Program-made: the position numbers and the translations under genes
In this document: positions 10,613-58,211 of the stretch, one piece after another
Numbering within the stretch: position 1 is the stretch's first letter
How the letters are laid out: each line of letters begins with the position of its first letter
Origin: Octopus sinensis
Lineage: Eukaryota
Direction of reading: 5' to 3'
NCBI RefSeq assembly: GCF_006345805.1
Contig: NC_043020.1
Span: forward strand, 22,568,001-22,632,000
DNA: 64,000 bases
The notes under the pieces: generated by a model
The model's input: only the letters and a program-made list of their open reading frames with translations
Told to the model about the DNA's origin: nothing
Database searches by the model: none

Positions 10613-11818
10613 ATGGATTTTCCTGAAGAATTACCAAAGGAGGTGAGAAAATCGTCATACCCCTGTGATATCTGTCACAAGACATTCTCTCTAAAAAGTA
10701 GCCTTATTAATCATAAAATCATTCTCTCGACTACAAACTTTAATTATTCACAAGCACATCCATACAGGAGAAGGGCCATATGGATGTGATACCTGTGGTC
10801 AATCATTCACTCTAAAAAGTCACCTGAAAGATCATAAATGTACTCATACTGATGAAAAACCATATCACTGTGATATCTGTGGTAAATTATTCACTGCAAA
10901 ACGCATATTAACAACACATAGACGTATCCATACAGGAGGGAAAGTGCATAGCTGTGTTACCTGTAGTAAAACATTCACTCAAAAAACTCACTTAAAAGAT
11001 CATAAATGTATCGATACAGGTGAAAAACCATATCACTATGATATCTGGTAAATCATTCTCCCGTACTCATCATTTAATTATTCACAAACGCATCCATACA
11101 GGTGAAAGGCCATATGGATGTGATATCTGTGGTAAATCATTCACTCTAAAAAGTCACTTAAAAGGTCACAAACGTACTCATACAAGTGAAAAACCATATC
11201 ATTGTGGTATCTGTGATAAATCATTCTCTTGGACTGATGGCCTAACTCGACACATACGTAGTCACACAGGTGAGAAGCCATATCAGTGTAACATTTGTGG
11301 TGAATCCTTTTCAGACAGAGGAAATTTAGCTAAACACAAGTTTATTCATACAGGTGAGAAGTCATATCGCTGCGATATCTGTGGAAAATCATTCTTTCAA
11401 AAAGTACATTTATATTCTCATATACGTATGCATACGGGAGAGAAACGATATCACTGTGATATCTGTGGTAAATCATTCTCTTATGGAACGGGATTAACTG
11501 CTCACAAACGTATTTACACGGGAGAAGAGCCTTACAACTGTGAAACCTGTGGTAAATCGTTTTCTCAAAGATGTTACTTAATTAACCATGTACCTATTCA
11601 TACAGGTGAGAAGTGATATCTGTGATAAATCATTCTCTCGTAGTACTGCCTTAATTAGACACAAACGTATTCATACAGGTGAGAAGCCATACCACTGTAA
11701 TGCCTGTGGTAAATCATTCTCATTAAAAGTTCAGTTAAGTAAGCACAAATACTCTCAAACTGGACAGATTCCCTATCTGTGTGTGCGTGTGTGTGTCACT
11801 GAAGCCATTCATACATAA
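10613..11818 (+). pseudogene. C2H2 zinc-finger pseudogene (ZNF gene 1)
   Basis: Starts [15 protein letters not shown] like genes 2/3; frameshifting deletions of 47 nt (~10724), 2 nt (~11046) and 11 nt (~11613); ORF remnants 11020-11616 and 11588-11818; acceptor AG at 10287-10288. Confidence 0.85.
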
Positions 11819-12446
11819 CCTCTCTCTTGCTTTTTCTCTGTCAATCACTCACACATTCATTCACTACAAAATGTGAATAAAAAATTTCAGTTATTTCTCT
11901 CTGTCTGTCTCATATACACACACAGCAGCAACATTAGTTTCTCTGTCTCTTCACACACACACTAACAAAAGCAATTCACATACATACCACACATTCTGTC
12001 TCACACACACACATCAATTCTTCCACTTAACGCCAACTTCAAAAGGTCCCCTTTCCTCCAACCCCATATTAAAAAAATTAAAATTTTTCACGGAAACTGA
12101 CAATCGTTTTCAAAAATGTAAATGAACACATGGTTTATAAGCAGTTTGTGAGTGACAGTCATGTGTTTCCATATCGAAAGATCGCCCACTGTTTTGATAA
12201 TTAGACAGAGGTCCAATAGTATTGCTCTCAGAAACAGACTACGTACAAATTCGTTCTTCACAACTCTTGAAGCTGTTTTTTCTGGCAAACGGGGTGGGGG
12301 TGGGGGGAGTCAGGAAATTTTCATACAGCTGAAACAGGACCCGAAAGGATACGGTTGACAAAAGCTATTACAGATTATGCCTGACCGAAAATGATCATAG
12401 CCACATCGTCCAAACAGACTGGGTGAAACCAGGATTAGCTGCAAAT

Positions 12447-15400
12447 ATATATATCATATATTTATGATATATATATGTATACACAGGTAAATTATTAGTA
12501 TCAATATCCTAGATACAATAAATTCTTACCTGTTTCAACTTTGTTCCTTTTAACACTCTTTGAATAGGAACCCTTAAGACCTCATTTAACTCTTGTGCGA
12601 GTATATATATCATATACACAGGTAAATTATTAGTATCAAAATCCTAAATACAATAAATTCTTACCTGTTTCAACTATGTTCCTTTTAACTCTCTTTGAAT
12701 AGGAACCCTTAAGACCTCATTTAACTCTTGTGCGAGTATATATATCATATACACAGGTAAATTATTAGTATCAAAATCCTAAATACAATAAATTCTTACC
12801 TGTTTCAACTTTGTTCCTTTTAACACTCTTTGAATAGGAACCCTTAAGACCTCATTTAACTCTTGTGCGAGTATATATATCATATACACAGGTAAATTAT
12901 TAGTATCAAAATCCTAAATACAATAATTCTTACCTGTTTCAACTATGTTCCTTTTAACTCTTGTGCGAGTTCTTTCCCCCTTCTTTTTTAACTCCTCTAA
13001 TCTCTTTTCGAGATTATCTATCTCTGGATCTGTTTCAGAAAGTATTTTTATACCACGACCAAAAGATGTTTCTCGATGCAGCACAAGCTCTAATTCTTCA
13101 TGAGTTGGTGCATACACAGGTAAATTATTAGTATCAAAATCCCAGATACAATAATTTCTTACCTGTTTCAATTTTGTTCCTTTTAACACTCTTTGAATAG
13201 GAACCCTTAAGACCTCATTGAACTCTTGTGCGAGTATATATATCATATATTTATGATAGATATTTGTATACACAGGTAAATTATTAGTATCAAAATCCTA
13301 GATACAATAATTTCTTACCTGTTTCAATTTTGTTCCTTTTAACTCTTGTGCAAGTATATATATATCATATATTTATGATATATATATGTATACACAGGTA
13401 AATTATTAGTATCAAAATCTTAGATACTATAATTTCTTACCTGTTTCAATTTTGTTCCTTTTAACACTCTTTGAATAGGAACCTTAAGACCTCATTAACT
13501 CTTGTGCGAGTATATATATCATATACACAGGTAAATTATTAGTATCAAAATCCTAAATACAATAAATTCTTACCTGTTTCAACTATGTTCCTTTTAACTC
13601 TCTTTGAATAGGAACCCTTAAGACCTCATTTAACTCTTGTGCGAGTATATATATCATATACACAGGTAAATTATTAGTATCAAAATCCTAAATACAATAA
13701 ATTCTTACCTGTTTCAACTTTGTTCCTTTTAACACTCTTTGTATAGGAACCCTTAAGACCTCATTTAACTCTTGTGCGAGTATATATATCATATACACAG
13801 GTAAATTATTAGTATCAAAATCCTAAATACAATAAATTCTTACCTGTTTCAACTATGTTCCTTTTAACTCTTGTGCGAGTTCTTTCCCCCTTCTTTTTTA
13901 ACTCCTCTAATCTCTTTTCGAGATTATCTATCTCTGGATCTGTTTCAGAAAGTATTTTTATACCACGACCAAAAGATGTTTCTCGATGCAGCACAAGCTC
14001 TAATTCTTCATGAGTTGGTGCATACACAGGTAAATTATTAGTATCAAAATCCTAGATACAATAATTCTTACCTGTTTCAATTTTGTTCTTTTAACACTCT
14101 TTGAATAGGAACCCTTAAGACCTCATTGAACTCTTGTGCGAGTATATATATCATATATTTATGATAGATATTGTATACACAGGTAAATATTAGTATCAAA
14201 ACCCTAGATACAATAATTTCTTACTGTTTCAATTTTGTTCCTTTTAACTCTTGTGCAAGTATATATATATCATATATTTATGATATATATATGTATACAC
14301 AGGTAAATTATTAGTATCAAAATCTTAGATACTATAATTTCTTACCTGTTTCAATTTTGTTCCTTTTAACACTCTTAGAATAGGAACCCTTAAGACCTCA
14401 TTTAACTCTTGTGCGAGTATATATCATATATTTATGATAGATATTTGTATACACAGGTAAATTATTAGTATCAAAATCCTAGATACAATAATTTCTTACC
14501 TGTTTCAATTTTGTTCCTTTTAACTCTCTTGAATAGGAACCCTTAAGACCTCATTTAACTCTTGTGCGAGTATATATATCATATTTATGATAGATATTGT
14601 ATACACAGGTAAATATTAGTATCAAAATCCTAGATACAATAATTTCTTACCTGTTTCAATTTTGTTCTTTTAACACTCTTTGAATAGGAACCCTTAAGAC
14701 CTCATTTAACTCTTGTGCGAGTATATATATCATATATTTATGATAGATATTTGTATACACAGGTAAATTATTAGTATCAAAATCCTAGATACAATAATTT
14801 CTTACCTGTTTCAATTTTGTTCCTTTTAACTCTCTTTGAATAGGAACCCTTAAGACCTCATTTAACTCTTGTGCGAGTATATATATCATATATTTATGAT
14901 AGATATTTGTATACACAGGTAAATTATTAGTATCAAAATCCTAGATACAATAATTTCTTACCTGTTTCAATTTTGTTCCTTTTAACTCTCTTTGAATAGG
15001 AACCCTTAAGACCTCATTTAACTCTTGTGTGAGTATATATATCATATATTTATGATATATATATGTATACACAGGTAAATTATTAGTATCAAAATCTTAG
15101 ATACTATAATTTCTTACCTGTTTCAATTTTGTTCCTTTTAACACTCTTTGAATAGGAACCCTTAAGACCTCATTTAACTCTTGTGCGAGTATATATATCA
15201 TATATTTATGATAACCAGCCAGGATCCCTGGTCTGGTGGTACGTAAAAAGCACTATCCGACTCGTGGCCGATGCCTCCACTGGCTTCCGTGCCGGTGGCA
15301 CGTAAAATACACCAATCTGACCGTATGACAGGCACCCATGCCAACCCCCTTGCTTGCGAAGACATGTTGGGGCAAGCGAAATCGAAATCGAATTGAACCA

Positions 15401-18204
15401 GCCAGGATACCTGGTCTGGTGGTACGTAAAAAGCACTATCCGACTCGTGGCCGATGCCAGTACCCCCTCGTTTGGCTTCCGTGCAGGTGGCACATAAAAT
15501 ACACCAATCCGACCGTGGCCGTTGCCAGCCTCGCCTGGCACCTGTGCAGGTGGCACGTAAAAACCACCCACTACACTCACGGAGTGGTTGACGTTAGGAA
15601 GGGCATCCAGCTGTAGAAACACTGCCAGATAAGACTGGAGCCTGGTGCAGCCTTCTGGCTTTCCAGATCCCCGGTCGAACCGTCCAACCCATGCTAGCAT
15701 GGAGAACGGACGTTAAACGATGATGATGATGATGATATATGTATACACAGGTAAATTATTAGTATCAAAATCCTAGATACAATAATTTCTTACCTGTTTC
15801 AACTTTGTTCCTTTTAACTCTCTTTGAATAGGAACCCTTAAGACCTCATTTAACTCTTGTGCGAGTATATATATCATATATTTATGATAGATATTCGTAT
15901 ACATAGGTAAATTATTAGTATCAAAATCCTAGATACAATAATTTCTTACCTGTTTCAACTTTGTTCCTTTTAACCCTCTTTGAATAGGAACCCTTAAGAC
16001 CTCATTTAACTCTTGTGCGAGTATATATATCATATATTTATGATATATGTATACACAGGTAAATTATTAGTATCAAAATCCTAGATACAATAAATTCTTA
16101 CCTGTTTCAACTTTGTTCCTTTTAACCCTCTTTGAATAGGAACCCTTAAGACCTCATTTAACTCTTGTGCGAGTATATATATCATATATTTATGATATAT
16201 ATCTATACACAGGTAAATTATTAGTATCAAAATCCTAGATACAATAAATTCTTACCTGTTTCAACTTTGTTCCTTTTAACTCTCTTTGAATAGGAACCCT
16301 TAAGACCTCATTTAACTCTTGTGCAAGTATATATATCATATATTTATGATAGATATTTGTATACACAGGTAAATTATTAGTATCAAAATCCTAAATACTA
16401 TTAATTCTTACCTGTTTCAACTTTGTTCCTTTTAACCCTCTTTGAATAGGAACCTGTAGTGACGTCGAGGGGGAGCTTTTGTATATAGGCGAGCAACCTT
16501 GAAAAAAAAATTTTTCGGCGGAGAGGAGCGTCTGCAGCATTACCGCTCAACTCTCTTAGTCTTCTCAAAAATTCAGATCGAGTCCTTTCTCCCAACTCCT
16601 CATCCGCCATTAATTCATTGAAGCGACTTTCTTCGCTTCTAGTGTTCCTCTTCTCCACTTCTAATTTAACAGACGCATAAGTGGCGTCTGGGCCAGGATC
16701 TGTGATAAGATCTCTGGCAGTAGTTGCAAGTTGAGGAGGCATACAACCATACAGGATTTGCAACTGCTGCTGGGAAGAAACATTATGTGCACAAAATTGT
16801 GCCTCTAGCTGCACAAACCACAGTGTGGCATCACCTGTGAAATTAGGTAATGATGTTAGAGACATTTTTATAGCTTTTAACTTTTAGATGATTCTGTCAG
16901 AGGAAAGGTAAACTGACAACGAATCAACGTTGAACAGACGCAACAAGGAAAAAGGGAAAAAGAAAGACCAGCAATTGAACATATATTCTTTATTTTCTTA
17001 TTCACAGAAAGAAGTAAGGTGGTATATTGGTATCCACTTGGTTCTGGTGTGGCAAGGCTGAACTTTAACACTTGTAAGAATCTTACAAGTTCAGCAGCAA
17101 AACAGAGCAGGTCAAATCTTAGCGTCCAGAGACAGTGGAGAAAATAGGTCCGCCACAATCTCGTATGAAGGCGTTCTGGTACTGCTGCTATGCGTGTCTC
17201 TCTGTGCCCTTGTTAAGGGAACGCTGTCCCTCGCCTATCAGCTAATGCCACATCAGCAATTCCTTCTTCAGTCTTCGCGCATGTCCGAGAGGGCACTTCC
17301 CTTCTGCCTTTCCAGAAGGCTCCAACCCCACACACGCACTGAAGAAGGACGTTCCGCACCCCACACTGAAAATGACGTTGCGCGCGCGCACTGTTGTATG
17401 ACGTCACTACAAACCCTTAGGACCTCATTTAACTCTTGTGCGAGTATATATATCATATATTTATGATAGATATTTGTATACACAGGTAAATTATTAGTAT
17501 CAAAATCCTAGATACAATAAATTCTTACCTGTTTCAACTTTGTTCCTTTTAACTCTCTTTGAATAGGAACCCTTAAGACCTCATTTAACTCTTGTGCGAG
17601 TATATATATCATATATTTATGATATATATATGTATACACAGGTAAATTATTAGTATCAAAATCCTAAATACAATAAATTCTTACTTGTTTCAATTTTGTT
17701 CCTTTTAACTCTCTTTGAATAGGAACCCTTAAGACCTCATTGAACTCTTGTGCGAGTATATATATCATATATTTATGATAGATATTTGTATACACAGGTA
17801 AATTATTAGTATCAAAATCCTAAATACAATAAATTCTTACCTGTTTCAATTTTGTTCCTTTTAACTCTCTTTGAATAGGAACCCTTAAGACCTCATTGAA
17901 CTCTTGTGCGAGTATATATATCATATATTTATGATAGATATTTGTATACACAGGTAAATTATTAGTATCAAAATCCTAAATACAATAAATTCTTACCTGT
18001 TTCAACTATGTTCCTTTTAACTCTTGTGCGAGTTCTTTCCCCCTTCTTTTTTAACTCCTCTAATCTCTTTTCGAGATTATCTATCTCTGGATCTGTTTCA
18101 GAAAGTATTTTTATACCACGACCAAAAGATGTTTCTCGATGCAGCACAAGCTCTAATTCTTCAGGAGTTGGTGCATTAACTTGGGCAATGAAGATTGAAA
18201 AATT
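12447..18204. repeat. Tandem satellite, units of 135 bp and ~152-156 bp, with a ~910-bp higher-order duplication; interrupted by a SINE and an LTR-derived element
   Basis: ACACAGGTAAATTATTAGTATCAAAATCC recurs at 12481, 12616, 12751, 12886 ... 14451, 14603, 14757, 14913; a longer variant segment recurs at 12971, 13881 and ~18034. Confidence 0.95.
16455..17411 (-). mobile_element. 957-bp Gypsy (CsRN1-like) derivative: LTR-type ends enclosing a gag N-terminal fragment
   Basis: Ends TGTAGTGACGTC/GACGTCACTACA; 4-bp TSD AACC (16451/17412); ORF from 16865 LPNFTGDATLWFVQLEAQF..Y..VK..LGERTRSEFLRRLRELS. Confidence 0.85.
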
Positions 18205-25439: not shown

Positions 25440-26110
25440 GTGTTTGACCCGAGCAAAAAAAAAAGAAAAAAATGTGCAATAGGTGTAAAAAAAACGTAGT
25501 AAACGAATATGAAAAAAAAAGGGCGCTGGCGAACGGGAAGGGGGTGACGACTCGGAAAATTCACATCTGGAATGTTCCGAGTCCTCTCACCACTTCGTCG
25601 GCGAAATTTCTTTTCCTTCATATTCGTTTACACCTATTATACTATATTTTTTTTCATTTTTGTGACCGGGTCTCGAAGTGGGGTTACTGGATCGTGTGAT
25701 TTATCCGAGTTCGCAGCCCACCCACCCGCATCACAAATGTTTTTAAAAAAATAGTGTACTAGGTGTAAAATAATGTGTAGTTAACGAATATGAAGAAGAA
25801 AAAAATGGTTAATGTTTACAACTTGACGCGGAAACGAAAATCAGAAAAAAATAGTGCAACAGGTGTAAAGAAATGTATAGGAATTGAATATGAAAAAAAA
25901 ATGCGCGCAAAGCAACGCGATGTGGGGAGAGGACCTCGGAAAATTCACAAGATCCGAGTTTCCCCTCATAACTTTTAGGTTTTTTTCAATTTAATTTTAT
26001 ATAAAATACCTTTCAAACGGCATACATTACAATTATAAGGTAATTTGTGAAGAAAATCTTGGAGTGGGAAGAAGAATTTCGGAAAATTCCCAAGATCAGA
26101 ATTTTTCCTT
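25440..26110. repeat. Dispersed repeat with subrepeats in both orientations (ATAGGTGTAAA..ACGAATATGAAAAAA..GGAGAGGACTCGGAAAATTCAC); also ~9940-10040, 35925-36080, 59815-60640
   Basis: Recurrent motif blocks within the introns of ZNF genes 1, 2, 3 and 5; class unknown. Confidence 0.6.
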
Positions 26111-26518
26111 GTTATATTCCGAAATCACATTCAACTTTCTACAGATACCCTAGGGTAGCACTACTACACTACGTAGCGTTTATTTCTACCCACTTTCAAT
26201 AATTTTAATGTTTTGCCTTCAATTTTGTTTCATTTTATTTTCAATTATTTTTACACTTTTTTAAAACCCTTTCGTCGATATTCTCATTCACTCGTTATTA
26301 CTTTATAAATATATAGAGAGATAGATGGGGACATACATATTTAAACATATATATATGTATATATATATAAATAGATGAGTGTATTTTTACCTTGTTAACA
26401 ATTAACACGGAAAAATAAATAAATAGTTACCAGGGCAGCAAAAATCTCACAAGTAAAGGTGTTGTAACTCCTTGTTTATAAAGGTAGAAACTTCGTATTT
26501 ACGTTGAATATTTTATTC

Positions 26519-26575
<57 letters not shown>

Positions 26576-26576: not shown

Positions 26577-27148
26577 GCGAGAAAGAAGCAACAAGAATGG
26601 ATAGGTTTTTAGTACGATCGTTTCATACAAGGACAGGTTTTATTAAAAGTTGCAAAGATTACAGCATATAAACGAGTCCCGTACTCATCAGCTAAAATAC
26701 ATGTGAGTTCTCTAGACATCCTAGTGTTTGAGGCTATACTCATGAAGTAATGTAGATAATTAAGTAACATAAACAGATTTCCAAAGTTCTTTAAAGTTCT
26801 TTAAAGAACTTTAATGAACTTTGGAAATCTGTTTATGTTACTTAATTATCTACATTACTTCATGAGTATAGCCTCAAACACTAGGATGTCTAGAGAACTC
26901 ACATGTATTTTAGCTGATGAGTACGGGACTCGTTTATATGCTGTAATCTTTGCAACTTTTAATAAAACCTGTCCTTGTATGAAACGATCGTACTAAAAAC
27001 CTATCCATTCTTGTTGCTTCTTTCTCGCTTATAATCACCCCGCATTACTGTATTGTTAAATCAGTATAGTTTTTTTTTGGTGCATCTAAGTTAGGTACCA
27101 TATTCAAGTAAATTCATTTAAATTAACTTGAATCTTTATTGCTCTTTT
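26577..27148 (+). mobile_element. Fold-back element: 452-bp spacerless palindrome (26577-27028) plus ~120-bp tail, within (TA)n; Penelope-like derivative
   Basis: The 226-bp arms are reverse complements with one mismatch seen (26790/26815); a hammerhead motif in each arm; microsatellite on both sides. Confidence 0.8.
26908..26998 (+). ncRNA. Hammerhead ribozyme (type I, canonical core); mirror copy on the minus strand at 26607-26697
   Basis: UUUUAG CUGAUGA GUACGGGAC..GUCCUUGUAU GAAAC GAUC GUA^CUAAAA: 6-bp stem I, ~9-bp stem II, palindromic stem III ACGAUCGU; predicted cut after 26992. Confidence 0.8.
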
Positions 27149-27731
27149 ATATATATATATATATACACTCACAAACACATATATCCAGTTAGAGGGGAAA
27201 ATCGGATCTTGTGAATTTTTCGAAGTCCTCTCCCCACAACTTGGTAAAGATTTTTCCGACAAATTTGTTTATAATCGTAATGTATGCCTTTTGAAAAGTA
27301 AAGCTCAGTTGTTGAGGTAAATGTAGAATTGTAGTAAACTTTCAGTCATATCTCTGCTTTTTAATCATCTTCAATAACTTAATCTGTTTCTCTGTCATTT
27401 CAGAATAACAGATGACATTGGCACTAAAGCTATAGCATCAATATGTATCAACATTTATTGACAAAAGGAAGATTTTATACAGAAGAACTTACAACTTCAT
27501 TGCAATAAATTTACTGAGAGTTAGTTCTTCGGAGTGAGACATTTCCAATCATTGCCAACAAGGTTCAGGAGATGATTTTATGTTCCATCTAAATTTGGAC
27601 AGATTTTCTAATGAATTTGCTACTGTTTTCTGATGCCAACAAAGATAACAATTGATGGAAATATTGCAGTATCATCAGTGCAGTAATAAATAGTGAAAAC
27701 TATATCAATATAATTGTTGTGTTAACGAAGA

Positions 27732-29282
27732 ATGGATTTTCCTGAAGAATTACCAAAGGAGGTGAGAAAATCGTCATACCCCTGTGATATCTGTCACAAG
27801 ACATTCTCTCTGAAAAGTACCCTTATTAATCATAAAATCATTCACACAGGAGAGAAACCATTTCAGTGTGATATCTGTGATAAATCATTCTCTCGATTAC
27901 AAACCTTAATTAATCACAAGCACATCCATACAGGTGAAAGGCCATATGGATGTGATACCTGTGGTAAATCATTCACTCTAAAAAATCACTTAGAAGATCA
28001 TAAACGTACTCATACAGGTGAAAAACCATATCCTTGTGATATCTGTGGTAAATCATTCACTGCAAAACGCACATTAACAGGACATAGACGTATCCATTCA
28101 GGAGAGAAAGTGCATAGCTGTGTTACCTGTAGTAAAACATTCACTCAAAAAAGTGACTTAGAAGATCATAAACTTACTCATACAGGTGAAGAACCATATC
28201 AGTGTGATACCTGTGATAAATCATTCTCTCGAATACAGGCCTTAATTACTCACAAACATATCCATACTAGAGAAAAGCCACGTAAAACCCATGGTAAGTC
28301 ATTGACTGTAAGACATCTCTTGGAAGATCATAAAGATATTCCTACAGGTGGAAAACCATATCAGTGTGATATCTGTGGTGAATCATTCTCTGCAAAACGC
28401 ACATTAACTGGACACAGACGTAAACATACAGGTGAGAAAGCGCATAAGTGTGATATTTGCGGTAAATCATTCTCCCGTACAGATCATTTAATTACTCACA
28501 AACGCATCCATACAGGTGAAAGGCCATATGAATGTAATATCTGTGGTAAATCATTCTCTCTAAGAGGTCACTTAGACAGTCACAAACGTACTCACACAGG
28601 TGAAAAACCATATCATTGTGGTATCTGTGATAAATCATTCTCTTGGACTGATGGCCTAACTCGACACATACGTAGTCACACAGGTGAGAAGCCATATCAG
28701 TGTAATATTTGTGGTGAATCCTTTTCAGACAAAGGTAATTTAGCTAAACACAAGTTTATTCATACAGGTGAGAAGTCATATCGCTGTGATATCTGTGGAA
28801 AATCATTCTTTCAAAAAGTGCATTTATATTCTCACATACGTATGCATACAGGAGAGAAACCATATCACTGTGATATCTGTGGAAAATCATTCTCTTATGG
28901 AACGGGATTAACTGTTCACAAACGTATTCACACAGGAGAAAAGCCATACAACTGTGATACCTGTGGTAAATCGTTTTCCCGAAGATCTGGCCTAATTAGC
29001 CATGTATATATTCATATAGGTGAGAAGCCATATCACTGTGATATCTGTGGTAAATCATTCTCTCTTAGTACTGTCTTAATTAGACACAAACGTATTCATA
29101 CAGGTGAGAAGTCATATCACTGTGATACCTGTGGAAAATCATTTTTGCGAAAAGCACATTTACTTTCTCACACACGTATTCATACTGGAGAGAAACCATA
29201 TCATTGTGATATCTGTGGTAAATCATTCTCTTATGGAAGAGGTTTAACCGTTCACAAACGTATTCACACAGAAGAACCATAG
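27732..29282 (+). CDS. Tandem C2H2 zinc-finger protein (ZNF gene 2), 516 aa, 17 intact + 1 degenerate finger, no KRAB/BTB
   Basis: Uninterrupted ORF of CxxC-x12-HxxxH repeats with TGEKP linkers; in-frame stop three codons upstream of the ATG. Confidence 0.95.
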
Positions 29283-31258
29283 AAGTATGGTAAATCATTT
29301 TCTCAAAGAGCTGGCCTAATTAACCATGTACCTATTCATACAGGTGAGAAGCCATATCACTGTGATAGATCATGCTCTCAAACAGGAGAGATGCCCTATC
29401 AGTGTGGTATTTGCAGTAAATATTTCTGTGAAAATAGTGATGTAACTAAGCACACTTGCATTCATACAACAGAATATATTTATTTCTTTACTACCCACAA
29501 GGGGTTAAACACAGAGGGGACTAACAAGGACGGAAAAATGGATTAAGTCGATTACATCAACCCCAGTGCGTAACTGGTACTTAATTTATCGACCCCGAAA
29601 GGATGAAAGGAAAAGTCGACCTCGGTGGAATTTGAATTCGGAACATAGCGGCAGACGAAATACCTATTTCTTTACTACCCACAAGGGGCTAAACACAGAG
29701 GGGACAAACAAGGACGGACAAATGGATTAAGTCGATTACATCAACACCAGTGCATAACTGGTACTTAATTTATCGACCCCGAAAGGATGAAAGGAAAAGT
29801 CGACCTTGGTGAAATTTGAACCCGGAACGTAACGGCAGACGAAATACGGCTATGTATTTCGGCCGGGGTGCTAACGTTTCTGCCAGCTCACCACCTTTAC
29901 AACAGAATATACCACTGTAGTATACATGGTACATGATCTATTATATAAAATAGACCTGTGTGTGTATTCACTTTTCCCACAAATTGGCTCCATACTTGGG
30001 ATGCATGAATAATTTGACCTCAGATACACAATAGGGTCTTCATTTTATTTTTCTATTAAAAATATTGTTTTATATATATATGATTCATTTCTTTAAAAAG
30101 GTTTTTCATCTTTAGCTTCCACATAGCAGCTACTTAAACAATATTAATTTGCTGCAGGCAGAATTTTCTGTTTACATTAAAATAGTCTCTCACTCTCTAT
30201 TTTAATGTTTTCATTCACTATTTGCTAACAACTATGATAAATTTCAGAAAGAAATATTTACTAAGCGAGATTTTTTTTTAAATTGAAGTTTTCAAGAAAA
30301 TTTGCTTTCTGAACTTCTTTTTATTATTGACTATTTCAAGTTCACAAATTTAAATAAAACAAGATAGTTTTTAACGAGCTTTTATTTATATAATTTTTTC
30401 ATTCATTGTTTGCAATCTTCTCTCCTCTGTCCAAAAAAATTTGTGAATTCTTTTGCTTGGACCCACATGCTTCGTTAATTTCCATAACAGTTTTTTATTT
30501 AATTACATGTTCAGCTCTATTTATTTGTAGTCAGTCACACATGTGTTTTTGTATGTACACTTATATACATTTGTGAGTGTGCATGAAAGAGGGAGAGAGA
30601 GTGTGTGTTGTGTGCGTAAAGGGTTGTGTTATATATACGTACATAAATACATATGAATACATCTTTTTTGTATGTGTGCATGTGAAAGAGAGAGAGTGAT
30701 GTCTAAGTGGTACTCTATCTCACACATGCACATACACATAGGCGCAGGAGTGGCTGTGTGGTAAGTAGCTTGCCTACCAACCACATGGTTCTGGGTTCAG
30801 TCCCACTGCGTGGCATCTTGGGAAAGTGTCTTCTGCTATAGCCCCGGGCCGACCAATGCCTTGTGAGTGGATTTGGTAGACGGAAACTGAAAGAAGCCTG
30901 TCGTATATATGTATATATATGTGTGTGTTTGTGTGTCTGTGTTTGTCCCCCTAGCATTGCTTGACAACCGATACTGGTGTGTTTACGTCCCCGTAACTTA
31001 GCGGTTCGGCAAAAGAGACCGATAGAATAAGTCCCGGGTTCGATTTGCTCGACTAAAGGCGGTGCTCCAGCATGGCCACAGTCAAATGACTGAAACAAGT
31101 AAAAGGGTAAAAGAGAGAGATATACAAAAAAGATGTATGCATATTTACGTATGTACATATATACATTACAAAACACCCCCTTCACTCTCTCCCTTTCTCA
31201 CACATCCATTTCATATACACATACATCTTTCACTTTAAAACAAAAGTAAATAAACATT

Positions 31259-31560: not shown

Positions 31561-34135
31561 TAAATAAACATTTTTTTATGGAAATTAACGAACAAAACCA
31601 GCTGTTCATTTTGGCATTTCTGCCTGTTCAACTGAAAGAATTAATGCAGCACCCGGGGTAAGTCTATCCTTGAATTTGTTCTACAGGAATTGTAAAAAGC
31701 TGTTGATATTCGTTATTTGTTCCTGTTTAAGTGAAACTGTGCAGATGTTGGTATCTGAACTGGTTGCAACCATGTTGGGACAAGACACACATGTAGATGT
31801 GTGTATACAAGAAGGGCTGTTAAACATGAAGATTGGAAGAGAATCTTCCCTATGTGAATCCAACAAAGGGACCAAGTATCCTAGTTGACAGCAGTATGAT
31901 AGATAAGGCAATTAAAGGTATGAACACAAGGAAAGCCCCTGGTCCACAAGGAGTCACTACTGAAATGCTTAAAAATATCTGGTAGAGTAGGATATGGTCT
32001 TCTCACCTGCATAGTTGTTCAGGAAGGCATTAGTTCCAGAGACTGGTGTAATATCATCATAGCAGCTACAAGGCCTTAGAAGTAATTATGGCAGCATCAA
32101 ATTGCTGGACCAGGTAAGTTGTGAGAGTTACAGCCTAATTAAGTAGTCTATAAAGAATGCAGTGTGGCTTTGTGCCTGGGAGAAGCACCCTGCTGGTTAT
32201 TTTCAGAGGCAACTGCGAGAGAAGTATTTAGCTAAGAAGCTATTGTACTTGGCATTTGCTGATCCGGAGAAAGCCTTCAACAGACTGCCTTGCTCTTTAA
32301 TGTGGTCTTATCTGAAACTAGGAATATATTTCTTTACTACCCACAAGGGGATAAACATAGAGGGGACAAACAAGGACAGACAAAGGGATTAAGTCAATTA
32401 CATCGACCCCAGTGTGTAACTGGTAGTTAATTTATCGACCATGAAAGGTAAAGTCGACCTCGGCAGAATTTGAAATCAGAACGTAAAGACAGACGAAATA
32501 CCTATTTCTTTACTACCCACAAGGGTGCTAAACACAGAGAGGACAAACAAAGGGATTAAGTCGATTACATCGACCCCAGTGCGTAACTGGTACTTAATTT
32601 ATCGACCCCAAAAGGATGAAAGGCAAAGTCGACCTCGGCGGAATTTGAACTTGGAACGTAACGACAGACGAAATACGGCTACGCATCTTGCCTGGCGTGC
32701 TAACATTTCTGCCAGTTCACCGCCTAACTAGGAAACTAGGGATAGGTAAATGATTTGTGAAAGCAGTACAGGCCATCTACAGGAATGCAGTTAGTAAGGT
32801 AAGATTTAGCTACCATCACCATGATAATTTGAGTATTCAGGTAGGTGTTCAAGGCTTGGTCCTCAGGCCTCCACATATTCATCATCATCTTCCAGGCCAT
32901 AATAGGAATTTAAGACTGGGTTGCCCAATAGAACTATTGTATATTGATGATGTTAGTCTGGTAGCAGAATCTGTAACAACTGGAAAAGAAATACCAGATG
33001 TGGAAACAAAACCTAGAATCAAAGGGCCCTAAAATTAACTTAATAAAAGACCAAAGTCTTAGAAAGAAAGAAAATGGACAAGATGTATAACATAAGGTAT
33101 ACATCTTTAATGATTCATTTCACTTTACTCTTCGATATAATTTACCTTTCGCCATACCCACACAATGGTGTCACCGTTATGAAACCAGGATTTTTTATAC
33201 TTGAAGAATTTCAGCATTGGTTTGGAGCCTGACAATGTTGATAGCCCAAAACTCGGGTTGAGTACTTCTCTGGAAATACCCTATCTGTATACCCTACAAG
33301 GACCTAAGATAACTTAAGATATATATGCTTATATGTGTAAGTGTGCACGTACGTATGTATCGAAACAATGAATGATTATAAAACTCTAAAACGGTTGTTA
33401 TCAAAGTTTTGTTGCCGAGCAATTAAATCAGAGGAGTGGAATACAGAAAAAGGATCTTTTCAATCTGAGCGACAGATTTTTTAATTATTATTTTTTTTTA
33501 ACTAAAAACTTTGAAACTTCGGGTACTGGTAGAATGTGTCACACAGAACAGGGTTTACTCTTAACGTTTTTGACAAAATTTTTTATTTTTAGAAGTCATT
33601 TCGTGTTAAAGTTGTCGTATTTCGGTAATTTCAACCAATCAGTGATGTGTATTCAACTGAAGAAAATTACTGCTGCTGTTTGCAAACAACAACTTCTGGG
33701 TCCACTCCCCTAACAAAACCCTTCTTTAATAACCAGAGGTGTTTTTATAGCAACATAGTTTTGCTGTATTAGGGGTCATTTGAGGCTAAATAACAAAATT
33801 ATTACTGAGACAGACCAACGACGGAGCCTGCTAGAAAAAGTAGCTAGACAGAAATTTCCGTCTTCAAGAAAAAAAAATGCAAGTTTATATTATTTTATAA
33901 GGGAATCCCAATATTTGGAATATGGATACTTGCCATCTTTTATTCTTTCAACTTTTTTTTAACTTTAGCTTCATCATTCAGTGAAGAATATTGTTTTAAC
34001 CACAGGATATCTCTGATTGTAATGGGTCTGTGAGAAAAGGCGTTCCAGCCATGACATTTTGTCTTATTCTTTTCTAGAAGTAATGAATTCCTAAGCGAAC
34101 ATTATAGAATAATGTAAACTTGCATTATTATTTTT

Positions 34136-34833: not shown

Positions 34834-37458
34834 TGATAAATGTTCATTTCAATGGTGTAATAATAATATATGTAAATGATAGACCTGTGTTTCACTTGGA
34901 GGATAACGTAATTATATTGAAAGGAAAACATGTAACAATTGGGGGAAAAAAAAGCCATCTTTCGTTTTGACTTGCGGAAATATCATTGTCGTTCTCTCTC
35001 GCTTTCTTTCTCTCACTTTCTCTCACGCACGCACATGCACACAAATACAAAATAGATTTATATATATATATGTATTTAGGTACAAAAAATTCAGGGTGAA
35101 TACTTGATAATTGTAAGCACCTGTATATGCCAGCTAGTGGTATAGGTGATAGGATATATGTATCAAAAGAAAAACAGGACGCAAAGGATTTTGCGGTACA
35201 TATGTTTCTGGCTTTATTGAACAATTTATATCAGTGCATAATTGATATAACAGATAGGTCAAAAGCCTTCTTCAGCCGCGTACAATTACCACACCAAAGA
35301 CATGTATTACATTATAGCAGGTTTGGGAAAAAACCGAGTTTCATTGGGAAAGTAAGTCCTCATAGGCGTATATGGCATTGCGAGACACCAAAACAAAACG
35401 TCCATACCGTTTTTTCACTCAATAAAGAAAATATGTATTTATGTATATGAAAGATAATGGGTGTTTATGTGTGACTGAACACGGCGCTCGTGCTGCATGT
35501 TAAGAACGGACCCTAGCCACTTATACATACATGCAAAAAGATACATGACAATACACACCTTCATCTATTCATTCATTCATTCTCACACACACACACGTTC
35601 TTGTCATATACACGTACATACATTTCGCTTCGCATTCTACTCGCTTTCACTTTCTGCTCTCACTTCAAAGTAAATATCGCCTTCTACACGTCATGAAAAC
35701 AAGAGTAAAAAATTTTTATGGAAATTAAGGAACAAAAGCAGCTGATCCAAATGTCAGTTGTGCAAGTCAAGACGAAGGATGACCGAAAAAGACATTTCTT
35801 TCAGAAAACACAGCGACGTCAGTAAAAGATATTTCTTTTAAGAATACTAATTATTTTGGACTGGAAATAAATAACAAGTTTGTGAAAAAACAATTCGGTC
35901 ACCAAAACAAACAAACAAATAAATAAAGTGTAATAGGTGTTAAAAAAAAAATGTGTATTAAAAACGAATATACAAGATCCGAGTTTTCCCCTCATAACTT
36001 TTAGGAAAATGGATATCTTTTATTGAAATTTTATATAAATACCTTTCAAACGGCACAGATTGCGATTATAAAGAAATTTAGGAGAAATTTATTTATCGTT
36101 TGAGTAATAGAAAAAGGTTTTTAAAAAATATCCCAACAGTGGAGATGTGCTAAAAACAACTGCTAAATCGCCCTTAACTTTTTTTTTCCATAGTGAAACC
36201 GTATTCAACACCTTATTTATGAATCTGTTTCTCTCACCATGACAACAAGAAAAAATGATTACAAAAATAGCGATTCTCACTTTGAAAGTAACATCATCAT
36301 CATCATCATCATCATCATCGTTTAGCGTCCGTTTTCCATGCTAGCATGGGTTGGACGGTTCTACTGGGGTCTGTGAAGCCAGAAGGCTTCATCAGGCCCA
36401 GTCAAATCTGGCAGTGTTTCTACGGCTGGATGCCCTTCCTAACGCCAACCACTCCGTGAGTGTAGTGGGTGCTTTTTACGTGCCACCCGCACAGATGCCA
36501 GACAGAGCTGGCAAACGGCCACGAACGGATGGTGCTTTTTATGTGCCACCGGCACGAGGGCCAGGCGAGACTGGCAACGGACACGAAACGGGGCGGTGCT
36601 GGCAACGAATTGTAAAAAAAACTTTTTAGATTACGGAACAGCCTGCTCTCACGTATCCATGATTAAAATTTCAGCGCAATCGGATGAACAATACTTGAGT
36701 TATAAGCACACAAACAGACAGACAGAATGGAATTTGTATATTAAGATATATACATATATATATATCCTGGTTGAAGTGAAATAAAGTAGTGGCATCACAA
36801 ACAGAATACTAAATGAGGAGAATATCCTTGATATGGACACTGGGAACAATGTACTCGTATGGATTTAGTAAAGGATTCAGTTCCAAATTCTCAGAATGTA
36901 ACTGAATATCAGAGACGGCCTAAAGATACAATGACTGAAATCACTTGTTCATATATGCGTAATCATTATTGTTTGTTGTAATATTGGTAATGTTTCATAA
37001 CCTGAAGGTGTATTTGTATTTAGTAAATGTGTTAACAAATTCAAAAGTAAAGTTCAGTTGTTGAGGTGAATGTAGAATTGTAGTAAACTTTCAGTCATAT
37101 CTCTGCTTTTTAATCTTCTTCAATATCTTACACTGTTTCTCTGTCATTTCAGAATATCAGATGACATTGGCATTAAAGCTATAGCATCAATATGTATCAA
37201 CATTTATTGACAAAAGGAAGATTTTATACAGAAGAACTTACAACTTCATTGCAATAAATTTACTGAGAGTTAGTTCTTCGGAGTGAGACATTTCCAATCA
37301 TTGCCTACAAGGTGCAGGAGATTTTCTAATGAACTTCCTACTGTTTTCCAATGCCAACAAAGATAACGATTGATGGAGATATTGCAGTAGAAGGATTTTC
37401 ATCAGTGCAGTAATAAATAGTGAAAACTATATCAATATAATTGTTGTGTTAACGAAGA

Positions 37459-39012
37459 ATGGATTTTCCTGAAGAATTACCAAAGGAGGTGAGAAAATCG
37501 TCATACCCCTGTGATATCTGTCACAAGACATTCTCTCTGAAAAGTACCCTTATTAATCATAAAATTATTCACACAGGAGAGAAACCATTTCAGTGTGATA
37601 TCTGTGATAAATCATTCTCTCGATTACAAACCTTAATTAATCACAAGCACATCCATACAGGTGAAAGGCCATATGGATGTGATACCTGTGGTAAATCATT
37701 CACCCTAAAAAATCACTTAGAAGATCATAAACGTACTCATACAGGTGAAAAACCATATCCTTGTGATAACTGTGGTAAATCATTTGCAGCAAAACGCACA
37801 TTAACAGGACATAGACGTATCCATTCAGGAGAGAAAGTGCATAGCTGTGTTACCTGTAGTAAAACATTCACTCAAAAAAGTGACTTAGAAGATCATAAAC
37901 TTACTCATACAGGTGAAAAATCATATCAGTGTGATACCTGTGGTAAATCATTTGCTACGAAAAGCACGTTAACAGGACACAGGTGTATACATGTAGGAGA
38001 GAAAGCGCATAACTGTGATATTTGTGGTAAATCATTTTCCCGTGCACATCATTTAATTACTCACAAACACACCCATACAGGAGAAGGGCCACATGGATGT
38101 GATACCTGTGGTAAATCATTCACTCAAAAAAGTCACTTAGCAGATCATAAGCATACTCATACAGGTGAAAAACCATATCAGTGTGATACCTGTGGTAAAT
38201 CATTTGCTGCAAAAGTCACATTAAAAGGACATAAACGTATCCATACAGGTGAGAAAGCGCATAGGTGTGATATCTGTGGTAAATCATTCTCCCGTACTCA
38301 TGATTTAATTATCCACAAACGCATCCATACAGGTGAAAGGCCATATGGATGTGATATCTGCGGTCAATCATTCACTCTAAAAAGTCACTTGAAAGATCAT
38401 AAACGTACTCATACAGGTGATAAGCCATATCACTGTGATACCTGTGGTAAATCATTCTCTCAGACTTATAGCCTAACTCGCCACATACGTATTCATACAG
38501 GTGAGAAACCATATCAGTGTGACATTTGTGGTGAATCATTCTCAGACAGAGGTAATCTAACTAAACACAAGTTTATTCATACAGGTGAGAAGTCGTATCG
38601 CTGTGATATCTGTGGAAAATCATTCTTTCAAAAAGTACATTTACTTTCTCACATACGTATACATACAGGAGAGAAACCATATCACTGTGATATCTGTGGT
38701 AAATCATTCTCTTATGGAACAGGATTAACTGTTCACAAACGTATTCACACAGGAGAAAAGCCATACAACTGTGATACCTGTGGTAAATTGTTTTCTCAAA
38801 GATCTGGCCTAATTAGCCATGTACATATTCATACAGGTGAGAAGCCATATCACTGTGATATCTGTGGAAAATCATTCTCTCAAAGCTCTGTCTTAATTAG
38901 ACACAAAATTATTCATACAGGTAAGAAGCCATGTCACTGTAATATCTGTGGTAAATCATTCTCGCTAAAAATTCAGTTAAGTAAACACAAATACTCTCAT
39001 ACTGGACAGTAG
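37459..39012 (+). CDS. Tandem C2H2 zinc-finger protein (ZNF gene 3), 517 aa, 18 fingers
   Basis: Intact ORF; first five fingers almost identical to gene 2. Confidence 0.95.
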
Positions 39013-45810: not shown

Positions 45811-47333
45811 CATATATATATATATATATATATGCGTGTGTGTGTTTGTCCCCCTAGCATTGCTTGACAACCGATGCTGGTGTGTTTATGTCCCCGTAAC
45901 TTAGCGGTTTGGCAAAAGAGACTGATAGAATAAGTACTGGGCTTACAAAAGAATAAGTCCCGGTGTCGAGTTGCTCGATTAAAGGCGGTGTTCCAGCATG
46001 GCCGCAGTCAAATGACTGAAACAAGTAAAAGAGTAGATTAAATGTTAGGTGTAATATTTTATGTTGTGGGACTGAGTAAGGATACACATACACACACACC
46101 GATTGAAGTATAATGTACAAGTGGTATCACAAATAGTTGAATAGTATAGTTTTTAGGTAGCATAGTGTGATATATATTTCTTAAATATTATGTAAAACCA
46201 AACCCTGCAAGTTATAAAATTTAATACATGTTGATGTTAGCAGTGGTACCTGGTATTTCAATATTTCAGGTGTAGGAGTCTTTCTTGGGGAAATTTATGG
46301 AGAAAAAGTGTTTGTTAGCTGATGTCTTTGTAGTGTGTGTGAAGGAAGGTTTGATTTGTATTGCTATTAGTCTCCAATCGGCTATACGCAAATAGAACAA
46401 CTCCATCTGGTATGGACAGTGGAATGAGAACAATGTATCCCTGTGGATTTTATAAAGGGTTCAATACCAGACCCAGAACGTTTCTGAATGTGAGAGGCAC
46501 CTGAAGAAGTCCTGAAGGTACAATGACCAAATACACTAGTCCAGATATAATGTATAATCAACAGTATTTATTGTAATATATGTAATCTACAGGTGTATGT
46601 GTAGTTTGTAAATATGTAAACTTGACACAATTTTGTATGATGATATATAACCCTTTAGTATTTAAACCTGTCATATCCGGCCAAAATATTTAATCTGTTT
46701 TATGTTCAAACTGACCAGATCCAGGCTCTCACACCTACCCTACAATGTTATTCTATATTAAGTAATTACACCATCAAGATCTTGAAGATGTGAGATAATG
46801 CATGATTAATTCAAATCAATGGGAATCAATAAGCATTATGTTTGATAGAATAATCTGAACAGTAAAGGGTTAAATAGCATGTTCTAAAGTGAAGTTCACT
46901 TCTTGAGGTGGAAGTTTACAGTTTATCCGTATAGAATTGTTGTAAAATTTCACTATTGAATCTCAATTTTTTTTTAATTATCTTCAATACCTTACACTAT
47001 TTCTCTATCATTTCAGAATACCAAAATATTTGGCCTTAAAGATATATCATCAATATATCAATATATATTTCCATTTACTGTCAAAGGAAGATTTTATGCA
47101 GAAGAGCTACAACTGTTTCTATAAATTTATCATGGAGTTACTGAAAGTTAGTTCTTTAGATTGAGACATTTCTTATCATTGTCTACCAGGTGTACGAGAC
47201 GATTTTATATTCCAACTAAATTTGGACAGATTTTCCAATGAGTTCGCTACCATTTTTTGATACCAACAGGGACAACAGTTGATGGAAATATTGCTGTAGA
47301 AGTGTTTGCATCAGTTCTGTAATAATTTATAGA

Positions 47334-48845
47334 ATGATGAATTTTTCTGAAGAATTGCCGAAGGAGGAGAGAAAATCATCATATCACTGTGATGTCTGTG
47401 AAAAGACATTCTCTCTGAGAAGCAGCCTCACAAATCATAAACGTATTCACACAGGAGAGAAACCATACAACTGTGATATCTGTGGTAAATCATTCACCAT
47501 CAGAAGAAACTTCACTGAACATAGATATACACATACAGGGGAGAAACCCCATAACTGTGATGTCTGTGGTAAATCATTCTCTCAAATGCATACCTTAACT
47601 ACTCACAAACGCATTCATACTGGAGAGAAACCATATGAATGTGATATATGTGCTAAATCATTCTCTGTAAGAAGTAACTTAGCCAAACATATACGTACTC
47701 ATACGGGTGAAAAACCATATCACTGTGATATCTGTGGTAAATCATTTTCTGAAAGCGATAGCCTAACTAGCCACATTCGTATTCATACAGGTGAGAAGCC
47801 ATATCAGTGTGATATCTGTGGTAAATCATTCTCTGAAAGATGTAACTTGGCTACACACAAACACATTCATACAGGAGAGAAGTCATATCACTGTGATATC
47901 TGTGGTAAATCATTCTTTCAAAAAGTTCACTTAAATACTCATAGGCGTATTCACACAGGAGAGAAACCGTATCACTGCAATATCTGTGGTAAATCATATG
48001 CTGAAGGAAACAGCTTAAACAAACACAAACTTGTTCACACAGGAGAAAAACCATATCAGTGTGATATCTGTGGTAAAGCATTCAGTTACAGAAGTTCGCT
48101 AATTGTTCACAAACATATTCATACAGGAAAGAAGCCGTATAACTGTGATGCTTGTGGTAAATCATTCAGGGAGGCAAGTCAGTTGGCAATACACAAAACC
48201 TGCATTCATACGAGAGAGAAACCTTATCATTGCGATATCTGTGGCAAATCGTTCTCCAGTGGGAGTTCGTTAATTGCTCACAAACGTATTCACACAGGGG
48301 AAAAACCATATCAGTGTGACATCTGTGGTAAGTCATTCTCTGAAACGTATAATTTAACTAAACACAAATCTACACATACGGGAGAGAAGCCATACCACTG
48401 TGGTGTCTGTGGTAAGTCCTTCTCTCAAACAGCTCATCTGAGTGTTCACAACCGTGTTCACACAGGCGAGAAACCATATCACTGTGATATCTGTGGCAAA
48501 TCATTCTCTCAAACAAGTCATTTAACCATTCACAGACGTATTCATACAGGGGAGAAACCCTATCAGTGTGAAATTTGTGGTAAATCTTTCTTCCAAAATA
48601 GCGATGTGACTAAACACAAACGCATTCATACGGGAGAAAAGCCATATGGCTGTGATATCTGTGGTAAATCCTTCTCTGGAAGTAGTGCTTTAACGACTCA
48701 CAAGAACATCCATATAGGAGAAAAACCATATTGGTGTGATATCTGTGGTAAATCGTTTTTTCAAAATAGTGATTTGACCAAACACAGATATATTCATTCT
48801 GAGAATCGGTTTTCTTCTGACTCAACCACAGATTGCAGGCATTAA
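47334..48845 (+). CDS. Tandem C2H2 zinc-finger protein (ZNF gene 4), 503 aa, 17 fingers
   Basis: Intact ORF; N-terminus [16 protein letters not shown] homologous to the other genes; one HX4H finger. Confidence 0.95.
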
Positions 48846-53547: not shown

Positions 53548-56500
53548 ATTATGCAAATTGGGAGTCTAATATATAGCAATTAGCAGAAAACCGCATGAAG
53601 AGTGATCTTTCTGCATGTTTAGGATGAATCATAACTGTTGACAGAGTTCTTAGCCTGAAAAGTGTTTTAGCTTCACCTTTTATTCAAACACATATACCTT
53701 AAGAACTTATTTTGTTAATATATATTTCTTTACTACCCACAAGGGGCTAAACACAGAGGGGACAAAGAAGGACAGACAAAGGGATTAAGTCGATTACATT
53801 GACCCCCAGTGTGTAACTGGTACTTAATTTATCGACCCCGAAAGGATGAAAGGCAAAGTCGACCTTGGCGGAATTTGAACTCAGAACGTAGCGGCAGATG
53901 AAATACCTATTTCTTTACTACCCAGAAGGGGCTAGACACAGAGGGGACAAACGGATTAAGTCGATTACATTGACCCCAGTGCGTAACTGGTACTTAATTT
54001 ATCGACCCCGAAAGGATGAAAGGCAAAGTCGATCTCGGCGGAATTTGAACTCAGAACGTAGCGGCAGATGAAATACCTATTTCTTTACTACCCACAAGGG
54101 GCTAGACACAGAGGGGACAAACAAGGACAAACGGATTAAGTCGATTACATTGACCCCAGTGCGTAACTGGTACTTAATTTATCGACCACGAAAGGATGAA
54201 AGGCAAAGTCAACCTTGGTGGAATTTGAACTCAGAACCTAACGGCAGACGAAATATGGCTATGCATTTCGCCCAGCGTGCTAATGTTTCTGCCAGCTCGC
54301 CACCTTTATTTTGTTAATATAGTTCCCTCTGAAATTAATTAAACCCTACCAGGGATATTGTTTGGCTTATATCTTTGTTAAATATCCCAATACTACAACT
54401 ATAATAGGGACTGAAATTTTGTTATATGGTGACACTGAAAAGGAAAAAATAGACTCAGCTGTCACTAAATGGACTTAATCACCAAGAATGTATCACTTGA
54501 CTTGTGAACCTCTCAGTAAGTATGCTGAGGATGTAGACGGGTGTAGCAGTGATGATGCTGATTTTTGACTGGTGTCTGTGTTTTCAAACGCCTTTGATAG
54601 AAAGAAAAACTGCTTGAAACAAAGGTAGGTATTATTAGAAAAAGCATCTGTCCAATCCATTCTAGTATGGACGAAACAGGCATTAAATGTGTGATTGGTG
54701 AATAAACATGCGTTTGCACATCGTGATGTCTGAGTTATAAATGTGTCATAAGACAAAGATGCAGTGAGCAAAATGATGGCAAAGAGCTGAGTGAGGGATT
54801 TTGGTTGCAATTAAGTATTCATCAAGGCCTCATGTTATTTAATCTTTTACTTGTTTCAGTCATTTGACTGTGGCTATGCTGGAGCACCGCCTTTAGTCGA
54901 GCAAATCGACTCCAGGACTTATTCTTTGTAAGCCTAGTAGTACTTATTCTACCGGTCTCTATTGTTGAACTGCTAAGTTACGGGGACGTAAACATACCAT
55001 CGACTGTCAAGCGATGTTGGGGGACAAACACAGACACAAACATATACACACATACATCATCATCATCATCATCATCATCATCGTTTAACGTCCGTTCTCC
55101 ATGCTACCATGGGTTGGACGGTTCGACCGGGGATCTGGGAAGCCAGAAGGCTGCACCAGGCTCCAGTCTAATCTGGCAATGTTTCTACAGCTGGATGCCC
55201 TTCCTAACGCCAACCACTCCGTGAGTGTAGTGGGTGCTTTTTACGTGCCACCTGCACAGGTGCCAGGTGAGGCTGGCAACGGTCGGATTGGTGTATTTTA
55301 TGTGCCACCGGCACGGAAGCCAGTCGAGGCGGTGCTGGCATCGACCACGAGTCGGATAGTGCTTTTTACGTACCACCAGACCAGGGATCCTGGCTGGTTC
55401 AATTCGATTTCGATTTCATTTGCCCCAACATGTCTTCACAAGCAAAGGGGGTTGGCATGGGTGCCTGTCGTACGGACGGATTGGAGTATTTTACGTGCCA
55501 CCGGCACGGAAGCCAGTCGAAGTGGCGCTGGCATCGGCCACGAGTCGGATAGTGCTTTTTACGTACCACCAGACCAGGGATCCTGGCTGGTTCAATTCGG
55601 TTTCGATTTATATGTATATATATGTATATATATATGTATGTGTATGTATATGTGTATGTATATATATATGTATATGTATATGTATGTGTATGTATATATA
55701 TATGTATATGTATATGTATGTATATATATATGTATATATATATACATATATACGACAGGCTTAGTTCTTATTGCACAGATAGCGAAGGATTTAGCAAATA
55801 AATTTGTAGAAACAATTTAGATTCAAGATTTCTCTGTAGACTTAAGTGGGGGTGCTGAAAAATTCCTGGCTTTAAGGGTACCACAAAAGGCTTGGTTGGA
55901 GACACAACCTTCTGAGTTTTTTTTTACAGGGCTTAGAAAAACTGAAGGACCACTGTAGTAAGTTTGTGAATCTGGGAGGAGAAATAACTGGTCCACCTGT
56001 ATTTTCTTTTACCCAAAGCCAGGAACTTTTTAGCACCTTGTATAAAAAGGTATTTGTTTGTTCCTTCTCGAGCCATGCCTGGCTCGTAAGGGCCAGTTTC
56101 TTGGTGTATAGGTTCCCCACCTGGACAGGACGCCAGTCCATCGCAGGTGAGCTGCAAGATGCAGGAAGAAAGAGTGAGAGAAAGTTGTGAAAGAGTCAGC
56201 AGAAGTTTCACCATTACCTTCTGCCGGAGCCGCTTATATTTCACTCATAAACACACACATCGTCCAGTCTGAGATTTGAACCTGCGATTCCTCAACCACT
56301 AGGCCATATGCCTCCACTTTAAAAAAGGTATAGTTTTAGTAACTATAAATGAAGACAGAATTCTGATATCATCAGGGAAAATGGTGATGCTTATTGTGTA
56401 GAGATGAAGTAGATAAGAATTTTGTTGAGTATGTTCAGTATAATCTGCTGGTGCACAGATGTAGTGGAATCAAAGATATGCTAAAATTTGAATAAAAAGT

Positions 56501-57897: not shown

Positions 57898-57916
57898 ATA
57901 TATATATATATATATT

Positions 57917-57952
<36 letters not shown>

Positions 57953-58211
57953 CATATATATACATACATATATATATACATACATATATTATATGTATAT
58001 ATATACATATATATATATATATATTATATATATACATATATATAGTATATATATAATATATATATATATAATATATATACATACATATATATATATATAT
58101 ACATACATACATATATATATATACATACATACATATATATATATATATACATACATACATATATATTATACATACATACATATATATATATACATACATA
58201 CATATATATAT

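Follow-up and report, generated by a model that had tools for sequence, protein, structure and literature searches.

Positions 26577–27028 of the window, by which we mean the whole 64,000-nucleotide stretch of Octopus sinensis DNA under analysis, form a palindrome of 452 bp that consists of two 226-bp arms joined with no spacer, the center lying between 26802 and 26803. The right arm (26798–27028, plus strand) bears the hammerhead strand in the sense direction and is a 5′-truncated family sequence, and the left arm (26577–26802, minus strand) is an inverted, tail-less copy of the 3′ end of the same sequence, similar to the pLTR of a Penelope-like element (PLE). Aligned with blastn, the arms are 99.6% identical (E 5e-115) and differ at a single place, the T at 26790 in the left arm standing opposite the T at 26815; no further copy of the arm is found elsewhere in the 64-kb window. 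The description of a 452-bp spacerless near-perfect palindrome in the first-pass annotation, with one mismatch in 226 bp, is thereby borne out. The right arm is followed by a tail of 119 bp (27029–27147, plus strand), which is family sequence present on this arm only. The end coordinate of 27148 that had been assigned earlier is beyond the end of the palindrome at 27028, but it does coincide with the end of the whole insertion, where the tail, reaching 27147, gives way to (TA)9.

Both flanks are microsatellites and constitute the likely insertion target, (TA)n(CA)n(TA)n at 26519–26575 on the left and (TA)9 at 27148–27165 on the right. No target-site duplication can be read at these borders. 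The segments 26504–26558 and 27128–27184 are 81% identical over 57 nt, which may reflect a decayed target duplication or a chance similarity between microsatellites.

A cluster of animal C2H2 zinc-finger genes makes up the window, and repeats of 84 bp are located in it near 10.7, 27.8, 37.5, and 47.4 kb. The tandem cluster occupies 10715–11750, 27726–29282, 37453–39012, 47283–48845, and 63749–64000 on the plus strand, with open frames of 518–520 aa at three of the sites; the copy at 10.7 kb looks broken, because its open frame has only 206 aa. The paralogues have in common some 500 bp preceding the fingers (73–94% identity) as well as a putative splice acceptor (27403), and the insertion lies about 255 bp upstream of the latter. 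An empty site was sought in these paralogues and none was found, the alignments beginning only at 27291. The insertion is bracketed by an older inverted-repeat pair (25921–26104 and 27187–27300), whose arms are 94% alike over 47 bp and 81% alike over 54 bp; the segment 27187–27300 is in its turn repeated in high copy in the four sequencing runs described below, and related pieces are present near 35.9 and 60.3 kb.

The window is rich in other dispersed repeats. A satellite at 12440–18200, with units of 135–156 bp that are 95–97% alike, is split into several blocks by other repeats, one of which matches 55065–55592 in inverted orientation (93%). Tandem units of 170–184 bp, 83–93% alike, at 29476–29899, 32324–32725, and 53717–54308 are SINE-like and resemble octopus SINEs. 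In addition, a degenerate (AT)n stretch of about 925 bp is found at 57898–58823, and a fragment of a Tc5/pogo-type transposase DNA-binding domain at 1395–1808 on the minus strand (PF03221, E 3e-07).

Each arm of the palindrome contains one hammerhead motif. On the plus strand (26908–26998), a PLE-like type I hammerhead has the core elements CUGAUGA at 26914–26920 and GAAA at 26981–26984 and the GUA site at 26990–26992, with the cut predicted after 26992. Helix I is made of 6 bp (26908–13 paired with 26993–98), and helix II spans 26921 to 26980 and is long, with an insert of about 40 nt. Helix III has 2 bp and a palindromic loop, inside ACGATCGT (26984–91), and is thus of the dimer type. The mirror motif is at 26607–26697 on the minus strand, and its predicted cut is between 26613 and 26612. 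The conserved core and the three helices of a type I hammerhead are therefore all present, with a G-U as the 10.1–11.1 pair. Of the earlier claim that each arm carries a canonical, textbook hammerhead, the type I core and the GUA site stand for both arms, but helix II opens with this G-U rather than with a G-C pair, and its length and the 2-bp helix III also depart from the canonical form.

Searched with a motif descriptor, the window gives only two matches, namely these two mirror hammerheads; when first-order Markov resamples of the window are searched instead, the loose descriptor finds a match in 11 of 200 and the strict one in 0 of 200. At the gathering score, an Rfam scan of the window returns no match. 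Compared with a 131-nt slice, the Hammerhead_1 model (RF00163) aligns from end to end with 22 bits (E 0.0021), the gathering score being 34. Hammerhead pattern scans gave no match in viral contigs and none in metagenome contigs. The miRNA and sRNA matches that Rfam reports in E-value mode on 901 nt were rejected as sub-cut-off, hairpin-driven artefacts of the palindrome. A short hairpin directly 3′ of CUGAUGA was also considered as helix II and was discarded, as no GAAA comes after it; it represents a competing fold.

The insertion belongs to a repeat family of high copy number and has (TA)n on either side, which supports the proposal that the palindrome entered the locus by insertion. Parts of 26803–27290 occur in 20 public runs (nine studies, five organism labels), and for four of these, designated X1, X2, X13, and X8 (three organism labels), all contigs were aligned on 26760–27300. 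In all four runs the contigs show that the family spans at least 26798–27136, with thousands of contigs in X1 and with members also in X13, a 5-Mb contig set, whose contigs differ from the right arm at 0 of 80 nt and at 1 of 150 nt. Upstream of 26798 the family goes on in all four runs (10, 2, 1, and 4 contigs) with letters unlike those of the left arm, which means that the arms are 5′-truncated. The 350 nt in the window copy and the 61 nt upstream in X13 give a unit of at least 410 nt. Roughly two private changes are found in the about 570 bp of the insertion, at 26790 and at 27042, where 98–100% of the family depth is A. It is thus plausible that the insertion is recent, even though arms can homogenize after insertion.

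At the other end, the tail is covered by family contigs up to 27136 in all four runs; positions 27137–27184 were skipped as a repeat, and the long end near 27147 is thus known from the window only. Other copies end on (TA)n at 27027 (6 contigs in X1 and 3 in X8) or at 27033 (19 in X1 and 15 in X2), such that this short end is found in three of the four runs, and the outer end of the left arm is 1–2 nt from the short end at 27027. The simple-graph depth of X13 is 14.9 in the arm vs 5.1–7.6 in the tail, and this drop of about two- to three-fold hints at copies with two arms and a single tail as the predominant form, depth not being the same as copy number. As read off the fold, the common variants 26930 T>A, 26944 T>C, 26952 G>A, and 26967 A>G keep or improve the pairing of helix II, the variant at 26948 affects a loop, and with 26989 C>T the dimer helix is left with G-U pairs. 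The tail in X8 (27004–27136) is dominated by the contig of a diverged subfamily, with 10 other letters, 5 gaps, and a depth of 96. One X8 contig extends at least 255 nt past 27117 and offers a possible route to the ORF of the element.

The inversion is centered on a native 10-bp palindrome, TCTTTAAAGA (26798–26807), flanked by 10-mers that together span 26783–26822. The center had been described as built of short re-copies, a view that has to be revised for the two right-hand 10-mers, which are native to the family (an X13 contig covers 26798–26877 with 0 differences). Palindromes of at least 6 nt exist at only 10 of the 349 possible centers of the unit, and the longest of them is TCTTTAAAGA, at the center of the inversion. 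A second inversion junction, in one X1 contig, is likewise centered on a native palindrome, TTGCAA at 26950–26955; the rule that inversion centers sit on palindromes rests on these two cases, with 19 of 157 loose ends listed. The mismatch 26790/26815 perfects a native tandem of 10-mers that is otherwise imperfect; only about 2 of 1,356 random changes would have this effect, and for this reason the mismatch is likely to be the result of polymerase stutter.

On the basis of these features, we consider it highly probable that the palindrome and its one-sided tail represent a heavily 5′-truncated PLE insertion, consisting of the hammerhead-bearing end (pLTR) of the element, with the mirror arm built during integration. 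The traits shared with PLEs are the inverted 5′-truncated copy adjacent to the 5′ end, the palindrome at the inverted junction, the type I hammerhead in a terminal repeat, the AT-rich/(TA)n target, and a tail at one end associated with two fixed 3′ ends in the family, the length of 119 bp being atypical. We infer PLE membership from this anatomy, the contigs supplying 30 letters upstream of the truncated copy. No ORF with reverse transcriptase (RT) or GIY-YIG domains is found in the arm, and a Pfam search of 106 stop-to-stop frames of at least 75 aa elsewhere in the window, selected outside the zinc-finger arrays, the satellite, and low-complexity sequence, yields no RT and no GIY-YIG, only 2 of the 106 frames being matched (Tc5 HTH and zinc finger). 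The copy cannot be self-mobile, since it has no ORF.

Integration may be envisaged as follows. The endonuclease of the element would nick the (TA)n target, and reverse transcription would begin at the distal end of the tail (~27147), run for about 350 nt, and stop near 26798. The end of the cDNA could then fold back on the native TCTTTAAAGA and prime the synthesis of the mirror strand, which probably stutters once on the adjacent 10-mers; this would account for the single mismatch. Finally, the second fixed end of the family, 27027–27033, would serve to link the mirror arm to the target. Alternatively, in twin priming, two cDNAs started from the two fixed ends would be joined at the self-complementary site. 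Twin priming and fold-back (snap-back) synthesis fit the data equally well. The literature on PLEs describes insertions with an inverted 5′-truncated copy, a one-sided tail, and a (TA)n bias (PMC8557442), palindromes at inverted junctions that were interpreted as self-priming (PMC3846280), and a tail lying between two start sites of reverse transcription, with both target strands cut at AT-rich sites and extended and with a dimer predicted (PMC11167929). How PLEs make inverted ends is treated as still open in PMC8557442 and PMC11167929.

We have also considered that the family is a non-LTR retrozyme, i.e., a short, non-coding, tandem element with a circular RNA, and that the present copy is a fragment inverted on or after insertion. 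The type I hammerhead, the low GC content, the high copy number, and the lack of any visible ORF are all compatible with such an assignment, and retrozymes are reported to be non-autonomous PLE derivatives (10.64898/2026.07.22.740005), so that PLE enzymes could yield the same ends. We nevertheless regard it as improbable, because the head-to-tail joint of a tandem element is absent at the locus and in all four runs within 26760–27300, and because an inverted arm with a one-sided tail is the anatomy of a PLE. The size is also unfavorable, a unit of at least 410 nt and the X8 contig that runs at least 255 nt past 27117 comparing with about 150–450 bp in the published examples (PMC7229834).

Two further explanations concern the left arm alone. 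Near-perfect spacerless palindromes are a known artefact of long reads, and the left arm might accordingly have been introduced into the assembly by fold-back (chimeric) reads; among the contigs listed, none bridges the center with 31 letters per side. A fold-back read, however, would mirror the tail and the right flank as well, and the mirror stops instead at the short end of the family, where the left arm passes into another (TA)n flank in the manner of other copies. The second inversion junction in the X1 contigs, together with the depth of 53.2 in the left-arm bin 26760–26778 of X1 vs 51.2 for a flank contig (27208–27300, 0 differences), is also suggestive evidence against an assembly artefact, X1 being possibly the source sample; the depth in the same bin is 0 in X2, X13, and X8. 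An artefact is thus unlikely, and we would give it hardly any credence. Equally faint is the chance that a sense copy was inserted first and that the mirror arm was added later, through template switching in replication or snap-back repair by polymerase theta at the native palindrome. Host repair polymerases do generate fold-back insertions, and the stutter looks templated, only 2 of about 1,356 single substitutions in the 452 bp being able to perfect the 10-mer tandem. Yet the mirror arm stops at a fixed end that is family-wide and that host repair would not know, and the depth step between arm and tail suggests that two-armed copies are the rule.

The reading as a PLE insertion can be compared with the known systems. 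EN+ PLE insertions (PMC3846280, PMC8557442) share with the window copy the head-to-head inverted 5′-truncated arms of about 200 bp, the junction palindrome, the extension at one end, the (TA)n target with no readable target-site duplication, and the hammerhead in the repeat. The window copy differs in being the repeat alone, with no ORF, and in its tail of 119 bp vs the 30–40 bp that have been published. Neptune, Hydra, and Naiad elements all prefer (TA)n targets, but the Naiads do not have canonical hammerheads, so that a Neptune-like or Hydra-like element is the better guess for the clade. The minimal type I motifs described for metazoan PLEs (PMC4209133) have the same CUGANGA and GAAA core, a long helix II, a short and palindromic helix III that lends itself to dimer formation, and an arrangement in opposite-strand pairs, published as 100–700 bp apart. 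The window motif, in contrast, has G-U in place of the conserved G10.1–C11.1 and no conserved extra base before helix II, and it has a GUA site, a helix I of 6 bp, and a helix II with the ~40-nt insert that includes a small hairpin.

The Poseidon element PAc of Anolis (PMC11167929) is similar in that two fixed 3′ ends delimit its tail and its targets are AT-rich. However, the ORF of PAc starts in helix II, whereas the frame opened by the ATG in the core of the window motif ends at 9 codons, and the unit is not traversed by any long frame. Non-LTR retrozymes (PMC7229834, 10.64898/2026.07.22.740005) are alike as short, AT-rich, high-copy, non-coding animal repeats with a type I hammerhead; unlike them, the window copy is inverted with a tail rather than tandem, and no circular junction is seen in it. 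A literature search on hammerhead ribozymes in octopus and on Penelope in cephalopods returned no paper on the family, judged by the titles and the beginnings of the abstracts listed; the family may be catalogued in Repbase or Dfam. Its motifs are absent from one supplementary file of PMC8557442 and two of PMC4209133.

The locus had been put forward as the best candidate for an active ribozyme, a claim that is not supported. In the monomer, the hammerhead fold has an energy of −9.8 kcal/mol vs −16.3 kcal/mol for the best fold, i.e., it is 6.5 above the minimum (tertiary contacts being outside the model). The double hammerhead is calculated at −34.4; for comparison, two free monomers have −32.6 and the best fold of two strands has −39.7. 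The unconstrained folds of the hammerhead region are no better than those of shuffles (z −1.1 to +1.7). A tandem dimer of the two hammerheads is impossible, because they are on opposite strands. Read-through from either side yields the antisense arm before the hammerhead strand, and pairing with this arm is predicted for 91 of the 91 hammerhead bases; the ribozyme is accordingly predicted to be sequestered in a long hairpin instead of cutting. Any transcript across the locus would form a duplex of 226 bp that hides the ribozyme and feeds ADAR editing and small-RNA pathways. A transcript begun within an arm would avoid the sequestration, and a partner in trans or a protein would still be required. 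This is in line with two studies, which describe metazoan PLE hammerheads as having no detectable cleavage as single motifs (PMC4209133) and the PAc motif as requiring the protein of the element (PMC11167929).

A pattern that resembles RNA editing is seen in X8, which we guess to be an RNA run and which comes from a sample different from those of the DNA runs; only its contigs were used. The changed places are A>G or T>C in 31 of 43 cases in X8, compared to 6 of 21 in X1, 6 of 21 in X2, and 1 of 9 in X13, and the excess of X8 over X1 is significant (Fisher p 0.0013). Differences are called private to X8 when they amount to less than 0.05% in X1 and X2 and are absent in X13. With 40 of 50 differences listed, at least 18 such differences are found, and these 18 consist entirely of A>G (5) and T>C (13); two T>G changes fall just outside the privacy cut, at 0.11% and 0.3% in X1. 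Among these same listed differences, 17 of the 18 are located within 26922–27011 and none in 26798–26921, the X8 contigs of the tail being few. One of the A>G sites is the hammerhead core A at 26984 (A15.1). The bias of the 5′ neighbor is weak, with A/U at 15 of 17 sites vs a background of 71% (p 0.09).

Judged by its sequence signature, the X8 pattern resembles ADAR hyper-editing that affects the two strands of the family hairpin duplex. The editing-like signal is that of the family and not demonstrably that of this locus, because no X8 contig covers positions left of 26798. Precedents reported in the literature include a hyper-edited Penelope of a lizard and the very high level of editing in octopus (PMC5625713) as well as, in flies, siRNAs derived from the inverted repeats of Penelope (PMC3681739). 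We found no literature that joins the hammerhead, A-to-I editing, and Penelope. The most far-reaching reading of these data would be a young and very abundant PLE family with an unusually long tail (~119 bp) that integrates by twin priming, the two cDNAs being joinable only where the sequence is self-complementary and nearly every insertion being a ready spacerless hairpin and a source of hyper-edited dsRNA, with A15.1 at 26984 among the edited sites; as a whole we hold it to be rather doubtful. If it were true, the many natural junctions of the PLE family would directly test snap-back vs twin priming.

At the locus itself, the hairpin could affect the transcript of the neighboring zinc-finger gene, whose acceptor is about 255 bp downstream. 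The single locus is otherwise ordinary, and its value lies in the family, which offers many natural integration products for testing PLE models. An editing-like signal that lies almost wholly in the arms would, in addition, link the geometry of PLE insertions to ADAR hyper-editing.
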